NCBI GenBank assembly: GCA_964016885.1
Contig: OZ024765.1
Coordinates: forward strand, 10,850,001-10,914,000
Source: Eledone cirrhosa
Taxonomy: Eukaryota
Reading direction: 5' to 3'
DNA length: 64,000 bases
In this document: in pieces, positions 5,599 through 43,060 of the stretch
Position numbering within the stretch: the first letter of the stretch is position 1
Layout of the letters: each line of letters begins with the position of its first letter
The notes under the pieces: model-generated
Seen by the model: only the letters and a program-made list of their open reading frames with translations
Databases searched by the model: none
What the model was told of the DNA's origin: nothing
Made by a program: the position numbers and the translations under genes

Positions 5599-5632
5599 GA
5601 AGAAATTAAAAGATGGTTACAAGAGTTCCATA

Positions 5633-5702
5633 TATTTTATTATGCGCATTTCGAATACAAAATCATCATGGGACCAAAATTGTGTTCTCATCAGATAAAA
5701 TA
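5633..5702 (-). ncRNA. Type-I hammerhead ribozyme (PLE pLTR fragment of about 5594-6450)
   Basis: Minus strand: tattttat-CTGATGA-gaacacaa...ttgtattc-GAAA-tgcgca-TA-ataaaata. Perfect core, 8-bp stem I, palindromic stem III. Confidence 0.85.
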
Positions 5703-7109
5703 AGGTAACATGATATGAGGCATAATAGCACTTGTTTACAGGAAAGTGCTAAGTCTACATATGACAGAAATATAAGTGTTAAAACTATAGTAAGAAATAG
5801 ATAGGAAAATAGAAGAAAGGAAAGAAGAGGGGAAGAGAGAAACTTTTGATCAGGAACGCTGTCAAAATGAAAACAGCTGTAAATAATGGTTAAAAAGTAA
5901 ATTGATGAGGTGTATGTGCGAATATTATAGACGGTATTCAAATACTAGAGGCCTAAATATAGAAACTGGGTATATTATTTTATATTGGGTTTAAATACTA
6001 AAAATTGGAATAAGAAGTGTAAAAATGTATTAATAAAATAAAATAAAATGAATATAAAAAAAGATTTTTATAAAATAAAATAGAAATAAAAATAGTCTAT
6101 CTATGTGAAAATTAATAATTTCTAGTAAAAATCTATATATGTGGGGTATACTATTTTATTTTTATTTTATATCAAGTAAATAAAGGAAATTACTAGAAAG
6201 ATTTATAAACGTAGAAAAACATATGACATCATAATTTGTTTACAAAATCTACGAAGGTTTGAGCGAAAATCGAAGGCTATAGAAAAAAAGATCAAAGGCT
6301 TAAAATATGATGAGAAAACCAAATTAATACATTGTAGAATATAATGAAAGATGACTGACTCGTGGGATATGTTATAGGACATCAGCTATATACTTTGTGA
6401 AAGGTCTTGTAGGATTTATGATTACAATGTCCAAATAAATCGGTTCTTCGATTTATTATTGTGTTGAAATTCGAGATAATGGTAAATTTTTCAATATCAG
6501 TAGAGCATTGGACAATATGCTTTACAGCATAGAGTTACAGACATTCACATTCTGAGATCAAATCTTGTTGTAGATAGTTTTGCCTTTCATCTTTACGGGG
6601 TCAATTTAATGCAGCAAAGCACTCAATAAGGTTGTGTCACCTTAGTGTAATAACATACGATAGATAGCTGGACAAATTGAAAACTGCGGCAGGCAAGCCT
6701 AGCCATTAGATATATATTTCTGGCTGATAACTATATATATATATATATATATATATCATCATTTCATTTTACGTCCACTTTTCCCTGCTTGCAAGGGTGG
6801 GACGGGAACTGATTCTGGCTTGATTTCTACAGCTGGATGCCCTTCCTAACACCAACCTCATTTACAGTGAGTGCTGGGTGTTTTTTTGCCGTGGCACCTC
6901 CATGATCACTTTGCAGTGGAATGATAGGGATCCCAGTCCCTATCATCTCATTTCTACAGCTGAGTAAACTGGAGCAATGTGAAATAAAGTGTCTTGCTCA
7001 AGGAAACAACACATCACCAAGCCATGTGCCTCTATATATATATATATATATATATAACTGAAACTGTAAGACAAAGTGAAGTAGTTAATTCATTATTTTA
7101 CGATGGTTT

Positions 7110-7303: not shown

Positions 7304-8063
7304 TTACGATGGTTTTAGAGAGCAAAGTGCTGAATGTGCAGATGAGTCGATGGCACTTATGTAACACCAAACCATCAGCCTCCATAAAGTCTCATCTTTT
7401 CTGCTGTGTCTCCTCTTTTACTTTCAATGTTTAACATTATATGTCAGACTCTGTAGTTTAGAATACTCAGCAATATATATATGGGGATAGCATCTTTCTA
7501 CACAACCAGATGGCCATCTGCTTTAATGAATTCATTTACATTGACATTACAGAAGGTTCTAGAAGGGTTAAAAACCCTACCCTTTTTAATGTATTTATCT
7601 TTTAAAAAAAATTCATTTTAGTGGTCTGTGGGATTTAAAATTAGGAATATAGAGGTCTGTGATGTCCGAAAGGTTGGTGACTGTTGATCAAGAGCATCTG
7701 TTATTATATATGCAAGTATGTATATATATATATATATATATATAAATATATAAATATATATATATAATGTGTGTGTGTTTGTATATACATAGTGGTAATA
7801 GGAAGTTAGATTTGCAGCTTGTTTCATAACAAGCTGCAAATCTGTCTTCCTATAGTCATTCTGTATATACACTCTGGTCACTACAGCGACCTTAAACCTG
7901 GAGCATAACCCAACGAGAGACTGGCCCCATCACAACATTAAGTGCTTCGACCAAGCCTTGCCGTTAGTAACCACAAGTTACTCACATATATATAGTAATA
8001 ATTAATATGAAGAGCAAAATCCGAAGAGGGCTCGATAAGAATTATATATATATATATATATAT

Positions 8064-8149
8064 ATATCAATGATATTAATAAATGGAAACTATATTTATA
8101 AAACCATATTTATATAAATATAGTTTCCATTTAGTAATACCATTGATAT
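8064..8149. repeat. AT-rich hairpin next to (TA)n
   Basis: atatcaatgatattaataaatggaaactatatttata / tataaatatagtttccatttagtaataccattgatat. Confidence 0.8.
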
Positions 8150-8233
8150 TATACTCCAGAAAATCTGTAGAGTGCTTCGAATCTGTTATAAATATATTTG
8201 TTGAATTACCAACAAATTAAATATCCCTTTGCT

Positions 8234-8273
<40 letters not shown>

Positions 8274-8661: not shown

Positions 8662-9111
8662 TATATGTGTGTGTGTGTGTGTGCGTATGTATATATATAT
8701 GTGTGTGTATTTGTATGTATATATGTGTGTGTGTATGTATGTATATATACACGACACACACCACATATGTGTCTGTATATACATATATATATATATATAT
8801 ACACAAACAGACAATGTATATATCACCTTGACCGACTAGTCTGTCGGGCGCCAATCAGCGCCGCTGGTCACAGCACGTCGTGCTGTTTTAGCCATAAGAT
8901 AATGCCATCCCACTGGTTGGGCGGGCAGGCCGGTACTCATTTCTACAGCTGAGCAAACTGGAGCAACGTGAAATAAAGTGTCTTGCTCAAGGAAACAACA
9001 CACCACCCAGTCCGAGAATTGAACTCGCAACCTTTCGATTGCAAGCCCAATGCTCTAACTACTAAGCCATGCGCCTTCACACAATGTATATATATATATA
9101 TACATGCACAT

Positions 9112-14785: not shown

Positions 14786-15121
14786 TTCATTTTTCATTTC
14801 ATTTTACGTCCACTTTTCCCTGCTTGCAAGGGTGGGACGGGAACTGATTCTGGCTTGATTTCTACAGCTGGATGCCCTTCCTAACACCAACCTGATTTAC
14901 AGTGAGTGCTGGGTGCTTTTTTGCCGTGGCGCCTCCACGACCACTTTGCAGTGGAATGATAAGGACCCCAGTCCCTATCATCTCATTTCTACAGCTGAGT
15001 AAACTGGAGCAATGTGAAATAAAGTGTCTTGCTCAAGGAAACAACACATCACCCGGTCTGAGAATTGAACTAACAACCTTTCGATTGCAAGGCCAATGCT
15101 CTAACCACTAAGCCATGTGCC
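14786..15121 (-). mobile_element. Full-length SINE family B (tRNA head + CORE-like domain + RTE-like tail)
   Basis: Minus strand: head tggcttagtggttagagc...gttcaattc, CORE-like ccttgagcaagacacttt, body gttggtgttaggaagggcatccagctgtagaaa, tail ggacgtaaaatgaaatga. Related copies at 6760-7030, 8935-9075, 16240-16515 (+), 38395-38500 (+), 55666-55770 (+). Confidence 0.8.
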
Positions 15122-15271: not shown

Positions 15272-15324
<53 letters not shown>

Positions 15325-15390
15325 ATGTCCCAAGGCTCTGATACCATCAACACTATAAAATACAGAGCTGGCATATCTAAGAACTGACTA

Positions 15391-15446
15391 ACTGCCTGAT
15401 GAGGTCATAGCCATTCAATGGCTATCATCGAAATATATATAGCAGT
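15391..15446 (+). ncRNA. Type-I hammerhead ribozyme in short insert within (TA)n
   Basis: actgc-CTGATGA-ggtc[atagccat-tca-atggctat]catc-GAAA-tatata-TA-gcagt. Confidence 0.85.
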
Positions 15447-15490
15447 AAATAAAGGATTATGAGTTCATGCAATTGACTTATGTTTCGTCA

Positions 15491-15556
<66 letters not shown>

Positions 15557-15584
15557 ATCAAAAGATGGTTAAAAGAGTTTCATG

Positions 15585-15655
15585 TATTTTATTATGCGCA
15601 TTTCAAAAACAAATATCATCATGCAATAACATTTATGTTTTCATCAGATAAAATA
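15585..15655 (-). ncRNA. Hammerhead ribozyme, left arm of palindrome (same family as 5633)
   Basis: Minus strand: tattttat-CTGATGA-aaac...gttttt-GAAA-tgcgca-TA-ataaaata. Confidence 0.8.
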
Positions 15656-15773
15656 GGAAGACATGATATGAAGGTTAAAAAACACTTGTGAATAGTGCAG
15701 TTTTAAATCAACATATGTTGATTTAAAACTGCACTATTCACAAGTGTTTTTTAACCTTCATATCATGTCTCCC

Positions 15774-15844
15774 TATTTTATCTGACGAAAACGCAAATGT
15801 CTTCGCATGATGATATTTGTTTTTGAAATGCGCATAATAAAATA
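15774..15844 (+). ncRNA. Hammerhead ribozyme, right arm of palindrome
   Basis: tattttat-CTGACGA-aaac...gttttt-GAAA-tgcgca-TA-ataaaata. Confidence 0.8.
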
Positions 15845-16515
15845 CATGGAACTCTTTTAACCATCTTTTGATCTTATATATTATGTATACTCCAGTCCTA
15901 CAAACTGTAGAGTGCTTCTTATCCGATATCTGCATTGCTTTATTGTACTACAATAAAACTCACCTCCTACATTATATATATATATATATATATATATGAC
16001 AAGTATGTTTTGAAACAGTGAGCAGATTTGAAATTAGAAAATAGAATAGCATTGACCTCAATACTTATCTTTTTCCATTTATCTGAGGGTTCTAAACCCC
16101 ATTATCAGGCTAAAATTTCTGTAGTCAAAAATACGGTGAAAGATATATATATATATATATAAATATATAAAGTTGGTAATACAGAGTACCCGACCTCCCA
16201 TGGGTACAAGCTGAAGCATATAGACAATATGCCCCCACAAACCCCAGTGCAAGGTGGTCGTGGAGGTGCCACGGCAAAAAAGCACCCAGCCCACACTGTA
16301 AAGTGGACGTGTACGCGCCACGAAAAAGCACCCAGCACTCACTGTAAATGAGGTTGGTGTTAGGAAGGGCATCCAGCTGTAGAAATCAAGCCAAATCAGT
16401 TCCTGTATAAGCAAGGCATGGTCAGCCGACCAGACACTGCCCACAACAGGACAACCCGTCTAACCCATGCTAGCGTGGAAGAACGGACGTAAAACGGTGA
16501 TGATGGTGATGATGA

Positions 16516-35309: not shown

Positions 35310-36850
35310 ATATATACTGTATATATATTATATAGAGTACCACAGGACTTACAAATATATATAGCATACAGAAGATAGCATTACTAGGTACTGTATATAT
35401 ATTATATAGAGTACCACAGCACTTACAAATATATACAGCATACAGAAGATAACACTACTCTACTAGGTACTGTATATATACAGTACCTAGTAGTGTTATC
35501 TTTTGTAAGCTATATATATTTGTAAGTCCTGTGGTACTCTATATAATATATATACAGTACCTAGTAGTGTTATCTTTTGTAAGCTGTATGTAAATATATA
35601 CAGCTTACAAAATACACAAGCTTACAAGATAACACTACTAGGTACTGTATATATATTATATAGAGTACCACAGGACTTACAAATATATACAGCTTACAGA
35701 AGATAGCATTACTAGGTACTGTATATATATATTATATAGAGCACCACAGGACTTACAAATATATACAGCTTACAGAAGATAGCATTACTAGGTACTGTAT
35801 ATATATATTATATAGAGCACCACAGGACTTACAAATATATACAGTATACAGAAGATAACACTACTAGGTACTGTATATATATTATATAGACTACCACAGG
35901 ACTTACAAATATATACAGCTTACAAAAGATAACACTACTAGATACTGTATATATATTATATAGAGTACCACAGGACTTACATATATATACAGCATACAGA
36001 AGATAACACTACTAGGTACTGTATATATATTATATAGAGTACCACAGGACTTACATATATATACAGCATACAGAAGATAACACTACTAGGTACTGTATAT
36101 ATATTATATAGAGTACCACAGGACTTACATATATATACAGCATACAGAAGATAACACTACTAGGTACTGTATATATATTATATAGAGTACCACAGGACTT
36201 ACATATATATACATTATACAGAAGATAACACTACTAGGTACTGTATATATATTATATAGACTACCACAGGACTTACAAATATATACAGCTTACAAAAGAT
36301 AACACTACTAGGTACTGTATATATATTATATAGAGTACCACAGGACTTACATATATATACAGCATACAGAAGATAACACTACTAGGTACTGTATATATAT
36401 TATATAGAGTACCACAGGACTTACATATATATACAGCATACAGAAGATAACACTACTAGGTACTGTATATATATTATATAGAGTACCACAGGACTTACAT
36501 ATATATACAGCATACAGAAGATAACACTACTAGGTACTGTATATATATTATATAGAGTACCACAGGACTTACATATATATACATTATACAGAAGATAACA
36601 CTACTAGGTACTGTATATATATTATATAGACTACCACAGGACTTACAAATATATACAGCTTACAAAAGATAACACTACTAGGTACTGTATATATATTATA
36701 TAGAGTACCACAGGACTTACATATATATACAGCATACAGAAGATAGCACTATGAGGTACTGTATATATATTATATAGAGTACCACAGGACTTACAAATAT
36801 ATACAGCATACAGAAGATAACACTACTAGGTACTGTATATATATTACAAA
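35310..36850. repeat. 74-bp tandem repeat (about 20 copies) with internal inversion
   Basis: ctaggtactg at 36012, 36086, 36160 and onward. Units are reversed at about 35476-35590. Confidence 0.95.
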
Positions 36851-39154: not shown

Positions 39155-39258
39155 AGCGTCCTTGTTCTCTACAGTTACACCTGTATGTTCTCAGGGTCAT
39201 CAGACAAGACTGATGACCCTGTGAAGACACAGGTGTAACTGTAGAGAATGAGGGCGCT
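39155..39258. repeat. Fold-back hairpin of two head-to-head hammerhead-like halves
   Basis: ttctctacagttacacctgt...cagggtcatcag-acaaga-ctgatgaccctg...acaggtgtaactgtagagaa. Confidence 0.85.
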
Positions 39259-42776: not shown

Positions 42777-43060
42777 TATAGCTGTCATCCTTCATACACA
42801 TCACATGACCATATCAACGTACTTGAGACAAGATTATGTTGGATGGTATGGTCATGTGATGTGTATGAAGGACGACAGCTGTATATAAAAGTGCAGGGCG
42901 ATCAAAATTGATGGCAGCTACGGAGTAGGTAGACCCAGAAAAACCTGGGACAAGGTGATAAAATTTGACCTTACACACTTACACCTCTCTAAGACAATGT
43001 CACTGGATCAAGATCTTTGGCGCTACGCAGTAATACAGAAGAGCTGTCTTCCTTTACATA
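42777..43060 (+). mobile_element. RTE LINE 3' fragment with short 5' inverted duplication
   Basis: WYGHVMCM...GRPRKTWDKVIKFDL...DLWRYAV. 42777-42813 is the reverse complement of 42847-42885. Confidence 0.75.

Follow-up and report, generated by a model that had tools for sequence, protein, structure and literature searches.

The window analysed here, a 64-kb stretch of AT-rich, repeat-filled, animal-like DNA, perhaps from a cephalopod, contains a long palindrome with a hammerhead motif on each strand. Is this structure a by-product of the insertion of a Penelope-like element (PLE), or is it a self-contained hairpin element? A first-pass annotation had offered both readings. The asymmetric layout, the linear copies and the variable joins described below uphold the former and not the latter; the palindrome probably represents two end modules of a very abundant PLE inserted back to back, in the ordinary manner. 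That the family is a PLE is very probable, and its membership rests on non-coding features because a reverse transcriptase (RT)/endonuclease gene was not found: no coding sequence could be recognised, and no RT or GIY-YIG sequence was present, among 120 of the 162 frames of the window, and Pfam gave weak, sub-threshold matches only.

Architecture of the insertion

The inverted repeat consists of two 167-nt arms (15548-15714 and 15715-15881) which are 95% complementary, with a spacer of 0 nt. It is the longest of the 12 near-spacerless hairpins listed for the 64-kb window. The axis at 15714/15715, which the first-pass annotation had placed correctly in a spacerless palindrome, falls within the sequence CATATG (15712-15717). 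Eight mismatches separate the arms (right-arm positions 15771, 15786, 15793, 15794, 15801, 15802, 15804 and 15849); one affects core position 7 of the hammerhead, two lie outside the ribozyme, and five fall in stem II, in agreement with the earlier statement that most of them do. The features of the insertion, together with a further copy in the window, are as follows.

15494..15554, no strand: (TA)n target array, left side (sequence)
15548..15714, minus strand: inverted, tail-less pLTR-like arm (inverted-repeat search; family 3′ ends join (TA)n near the mirror position)
15585..15655, minus strand: type I hammerhead motif, core CTGATGA at 15647-15641, predicted cut between 15593/15592 (motif scan)
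15712..15717, no strand: centre CATATG, holding A15713 (fixed 5′ end of the inverted arms in the family; putative capped RNA start) and the shared microhomology ATAT (read/contig joint tables)
15715..15881, plus strand: direct pLTR-like arm (inverted-repeat search; reads/contigs)
15774..15844, plus strand: type I hammerhead motif, core CTGACGA at 15782-15788, GAAA at 15825-15828, loop III GCGC (motif scan)
15882..15972, plus strand: one-sided tail of ~90 nt, family sequence (read/contig depth; records 8, 14 and 23 bridge arm and tail)
15973..15997, no strand: (TA)n target array, right side (sequence)
5605..5763, minus strand: third family copy, single arm with its own hammerhead (83% over 133 nt)

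Read from left to right, the insertion comprises (TA)n, the inverted arm, the direct arm, the tail and (TA)n again. The (TA)n lies on both sides, and a target-site duplication is unreadable within the repeat; the outer ~7 nt of the inverted arm are likewise not distinguishable from the TA run. The element had been thought to end at 15880, which proved incorrect, as the right "flank" 15882-15972 is high-copy family sequence, and this makes the insertion asymmetric. None of the contigs or reads listed from four public runs spans the palindrome locus end to end.

Directly to the left of the palindrome, between two (TA)n runs, is a solo unit of another family (15322-15493, plus strand), which carries a type I hammerhead at 15391-15446 (z -2.6) and has no other copy in the window. 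Short hairpins occur at 254-307, 7780-7871, 35359-35589, 39155-39258 and 42780-42880, with arms of 26-101 nt and no hammerhead core in the scan. A tRNA-like head is found at 9008-9071 on the minus strand (Rfam, 31 bits), and SINE-like repeats are abundant, for example at 6492-6605, 14851-14954 and 16244-16393. Two SINE-like copies, oppositely oriented and 1.3-1.4 kb apart, lie one on each side of the palindrome.

Hammerhead motifs and their predicted folding

Each arm carries one hammerhead, CTGATGA on the left and CTGACGA on the right, differing at position 7, as had been noted earlier; both are type I motifs. Both possess an 8-bp stem I, a long stem II, GAAA and an AUA cleavage triplet, with a stem III of 2 bp closed by the palindromic loop GCGC. 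The predicted cut of the right-arm (plus-strand) motif is after A15836. A type I hammerhead with a short palindromic helix III inside a pLTR-like arm is a PLE feature. The first pair of stem II is A-U in both arms (A10.1-U11.1) instead of the canonical G-C, and the third copy (5605-5763) has G-C at this place.

Of the five stem II differences, four leave a base pair in place (G-U/A-U, C-G/U-G), and at the fifth the right arm has a U-U mismatch where the left arm has A-U. Judged from the sequences, the pair-keeping changes mostly preserve pairing by themselves and are no show of selection; pair counts on three sequences were uninformative, with 166/500 shuffles equally high. Core variants other than N7 are absent from the best 40 of 92 variant rows (reads/contigs). 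Rfam gave no hammerhead match at gathering level or at E<=10, and its miRNA matches, below the gathering score, are what any perfect hairpin yields and were set aside. Taken in isolation, the two hammerhead motifs fold no better than shuffled sequences (z -1.0 and -0.2).

The palindrome had been described as encoding a rod-like, superficially viroid-like RNA with ribozymes in both polarities. Computed folding does not support a viroid-like RNA. Read-through RNA is predicted to fold into a single duplex (-230 to -239 kcal/mol), in which the stem I pairing probability of the plus strand is 0.0, as against ~0.3 in RNA starting at A15713; because stem I does not form in the read-through RNA, the viroid likeness is, on the predicted fold, superficial. 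As passengers of the end module, the hammerheads would be unmasked only in RNA beginning at the centre. For a pair of sense RNAs, the computation predicts contact via the GCGC loops with the stem I strands swapped (-33.9 kcal/mol). Such a dimer form has been described for PLE hammerheads, with weak cleavage in vitro (PMC4209133), and the ribozyme of an anole PLE required protein, insertion being possible without the ribozyme (PMC11167929).

Family copies and the joins at the centre

Eighteen public runs from 13 studies contain words from the palindrome stretch, and the listing includes no RNA run. Four of these, X1 and X20 (organism A), X4 (organism B) and X7 (organism D), were aligned at 80% likeness to a reference stretch of 283 bases (15690-15972), yielding 4734 contigs, 5230 raw reads, 36 and 34 records for X1, X20, X4 and X7, respectively. 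The reference includes 25 nt of the left arm and may favour the listing of joints at that end. Contig depths are not copy numbers, and the depths of X20 were excluded as copy frequencies, these data being of the reduced-representation kind, in which 1142 molecules share one end point.

The alignments reveal a high-copy family in three organisms, comprising linear copies, other palindromes with the same centre, and many asymmetric head-to-head joins. Its depth is uninterrupted over 15882-15972, where pieces bridge arm and tail, and its 3′ ends join (TA)n near 15869, 15889 (61 contigs, 274 reads) and 15970. In the third copy within the window (5605-5763) the likeness begins at the same CATATG as the palindrome centre; this copy is without a tail and ends in (TA)n. 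Linear copies run on upstream of 15712 with similar sequence in 4/4 runs, 30 letters being visible in all four. This continuation is present in 266 raw reads of X20, and the agreement among 20 X1 contigs is only 0.65. Over these letters it would fit partial tandem pLTR-ORF-pLTR source copies. The third copy was considered as a carrier of the native upstream sequence and dropped, because a motif taken from the upstream sequence of the reads does not occur in the window. An A-rich stretch (5763-6490, plus strand) faces the third copy head to head and contains a 54-aa basic frame (6180-6341, plus strand) which by eye resembles a PLE N-terminus; no homologue was found for it and it was rejected. 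Pattern scans of metagenome, viral and prokaryotic collections gave 0 matches. Five short family motifs are absent from the supplement text of PMC8557442, in whose available part line breaks could hide a match.

A related family is represented at 8044-8240 by (TA)n, an inverted 37-nt arm, a 12-nt spacer, a direct arm, a tail of ~90 nt and (TA)n. The main tail shares its motif at 15889-15913 with this family (77% over 44 nt). The shared motif can form a stem-loop with a variable loop, and the minimum-energy fold of the main tail pairs it differently.

Three forms of the centre are found among the family copies: linear, same-centre palindrome and asymmetric join. Record 9 of X4 is a same-centre palindrome in another copy, with 127 nt and 13 differences; it ends at 15700, the point at which assembly with 31-mers is bound to break off at a hairpin of this kind. 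Six X1 contigs show a centre variant with two extra letters (+AT), and in X20 the centre is crossed by 16-19 raw reads with two starts, a G at 15714 and at least three other differences. Fourteen of the 15 joints among the matches listed (15 of 30) have one side at 15712-15716, the fifteenth being an internal skip in X7. All 12 of the listed "skip" rows allow an end at exactly 15716, which mirrors A15713, and both opposite-strand joint rows sit at 15713. The start of the partner arm, among the joints listed, takes 12 values in the range 15820-15953. A head-to-head inverted copy next to the 5′ end, truncated to a variable extent, is a further PLE feature.

The first-pass annotation had proposed that a shared centre would mark a family and variable centres independent truncations. 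The joins give a third answer, with one side fixed to the base and the other side varying, so that same-centre palindromes recur without the unit moving as a whole. The fixed end is not universal, since both arms of the 8044-8240 insertion are cut short, and the predicted hammerhead cut site does not coincide with A15713.

Microhomology at the 12 skip rows averages 1.75 nt, compared with 0.60 nt expected by chance (P=0.0005), a mean which omits seven insert rows that would lower it. Ten X1 rows carry inserted letters. Seven of them start at 15716, and their inserts begin with C in 7/7 cases; the other three (15717, 15722 and 15830) begin with A, C and A. With a C fraction of 0.16 for the element, seven C-starting inserts have a chance of 0.16^7=2.6e-6. 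On this strand the inserted letters represent a cDNA 3′ end. A linear template would give G, not C, after the fixed end. Duplication of CAACA or CATAT letters close by could account for three of the seven inserts but not for four, and we read the C as untemplated in at least 4/7 of these rows. Of the 12 skip rows, ten are joined through microhomology and so offer no test of the C.

Inserts beginning with C are as expected from the copying of a 5′ cap. The linear context at the fixed end, pyrimidines then C|A, resembles the initiator consensus. An extra G from the cap marks full-length insertions of the L1 type, and C opposite the cap is a known mark of cDNA that has reached the capped 5′ end (PMC11702581, PMC2912911). 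The Penelope element of D. virilis has an internal promoter with a start upstream of the hammerhead region (PMC2377424, PMC4209133). We surmise that A15713 is the capped start of a Pol II RNA, 61 nt before stem I.

Two single joints in X1 deserve separate mention. In one contig the symmetric joint from 15716 to 15713 has a 29-letter insert in which the terminal ~12 letters of the cDNA recur, with a C after every repeat; it looks like repeated re-copying of the RNA 5′ end, similar to telomerase realignment, or like an insert templated by a repair polymerase. In the other, from 15716 to 15837, the partner arm starts exactly at the predicted hammerhead cut (after A15836); this is one of ~20 joins and is compatible with chance.

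Origin of the palindrome and comparison with known systems

Within the PLE reading, it is reasonably probable that the palindrome arose from two target-primed cDNAs, made on different sense RNAs, each reaching the capped start and joined via the ATAT microhomology. One target end would prime at the inner start and run ~165 nt to the RNA start, producing the inverted arm. The other would prime at the outer start, producing the tail, and its cDNA could stop anywhere; the two cDNA ends would then be joined by microhomology. Should both cDNAs stop at, or be caught at, the self-complementary ATAT, a spacerless palindrome would result, with ends annealed over 4 nt giving the centre seen in the window and ends annealed over 2 nt giving the +AT variant. 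The palindrome would be rebuilt at each insertion and would not move as a unit. We infer a cap-copying origin for the C, priming from two ends, and a PLE RT/GIY-YIG protein as the agent. In work with purified PLE protein, AT-rich DNA was cut on both strands and both were extended; the protein is predicted to form a dimer, and it starts at two internal sites which define the tail (PMC11167929). A more speculative extension, which we regard as doubtful, would have the head-to-head structures of PLEs in general arise in this way, by two-ended priming on two separate capped sense RNAs and not by self-priming on antisense RNA. As the RNA start would lie at the axis, palindromic mini-copies could then themselves fire unmasked hammerhead RNA outward from the centre and so seed new copies, and the outcome would be a non-coding family in which each insertion builds the palindrome anew from two RNAs.

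The principal alternative keeps the PLE insertion and has the mirror arm made by self-priming (fold-back) of one strand at the native CATATG, the arms being altered by later mutation or gene conversion. Self-priming on an antisense template has already been proposed for rotifer PLEs in the Discussion of PMC3846280, and the native CATATG is present in the linear copies. The two explanations can be compared on the arm alleles. At six of the eight arm differences the left allele is a variant frequent in the family (0.27-1.00, depending on the run). Organism A commonly has either allele at 15771, 15793, 15801 and 15804, and the left alleles at these four positions have the same depth in two X4 contigs (organism B). 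The right allele at 15802 is rare (1-7% or less) and probably private, and two of the eight differences are absent from the best 40 of 92 variant rows. Three of the six shared alleles are CpG sites, able to change recurrently, which suits fold-back followed by mutation; the non-CpG differences at 15771 and 15801 match common linked family alleles, which does not. The arms share an identical inner 56 bp (P=0.029 for random placement of the eight differences), which mildly favours the copying of one arm from the other, and later gene conversion may be the source of the arm differences. A fold-back of one cDNA would begin with identical arms, so that arms carrying different family alleles argue against a simple event of this kind. 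Moreover, fold-back at a fixed palindrome accounts neither for a fixed end joined to 12 partner positions nor for the C that follows it, and we consider it unlikely.

Much less probable still is a self-contained, non-autonomous hairpin element, either MITE-like or a rod-like RNA, moving as the whole palindrome. Same-centre palindromes do occur in other copies and in a second organism, the summed depth of the +AT variant is 4711 as against 30-160 for single joints, and on the left of the centre the X1 depth changes abruptly at 15700, from 30907 to 67686. Against these stand a unit that is asymmetric, with its tail on one side, and a fixed end which is shared by centre variants, asymmetric joins and linear copies alike. 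The read-through hairpin, as computed, abolishes stem I, and each strand has one sense ribozyme, of the 2-bp stem III type reported to need a dimer (PMC4209133). An assembly or read fold-back artefact, suggested by the want of a listed contig or read across the locus and by the recorded difficulty of assembling such structures (PMC8557442), is scarcely credible, as it would give identical arms and mirrored flanks, whereas here the arms differ by family-type alleles and the flanks differ, same-centre joins are found in a further organism and in the raw reads of a different study, and X1, though possibly the source sample, contains 0.94 of 32 sampled words.

How tandem and inverted PLE structures form is named as unresolved in PMC8557442, and our literature search, over listings of open-access papers, found no cap signature or two-template origin described for PLE inversions. 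As a test case the family offers joins by the thousand, an end fixed to the base, what may be a cap signature, and subfamilies that can be told apart; its joins together with RNA 5′ ends could decide between the two-template and self-priming models.

In its structure the palindrome is ordinary for PLEs, of which it is very probably a new family member. The same head-to-head inverted 5′ copy and junction palindrome are described for PLE insertions (PMC8557442; PMC3846280, Adineta vaga; PMC2377424, D. virilis), as are the tail at one end, the (TA)n targets and the hammerhead in the pLTR (PMC8557442). Here, by comparison, no ORF lies between the repeats, the tail is ~90 nt where 30-40 bp has been published (PMC8557442), and there is a base-exact fixed end with a following C, which does not appear in the portions of the published descriptions compared. 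The hammerheads share with those of PLEs (PMC4209133) the type I topology, long helix II, 2-bp helix III, palindromic loop and variability of helix II across copies, and depart from them in A10.1-U11.1 in place of the usual G-C, with a helix I of 8 bp. In Schistosoma mansoni, PLE copies contain paired opposite-strand hammerheads 100-700 bp apart; the cores here are likewise paired, ~135 bp apart, the available account giving neither orientation nor spacer (PMC4209133).

Non-LTR retrozymes are similarly non-coding, carry type I hammerheads and derive from PLE pLTRs, but they are head-to-tail tandems with ribozymes of the same sense, in contrast to the head-to-head arrangement with one ribozyme per strand seen here (PMC4209133; bioRxiv 10.64898/2026.07.22.740005). 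A retrozyme was rejected on this ground and because no join of unit end to unit start is present among the 15 joints listed. A MITE or fold-back DNA transposon was rejected in view of the one-sided tail, the variable partner arm and the linear copies. Viroids and viroid-like circular RNAs with hammerheads carry these in both polarities on an imperfect rod. The palindrome resembles them in having hammerhead motifs readable in both DNA polarities, and differs in that its duplex is perfect and the ribozyme, by computation, cannot fold in read-through RNA.

The twin priming of L1 also involves two cDNAs from two target ends, annealed by microhomology, and L1 has the same extra nucleotide opposite the cap at full-length ends; its two cDNAs copy non-overlapping parts of one RNA with a poly(A) tail (PMC2912911, PMC11702581). 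In the palindrome, by contrast, a single module has been copied twice, with internal starts and, as it seems, on two templates.
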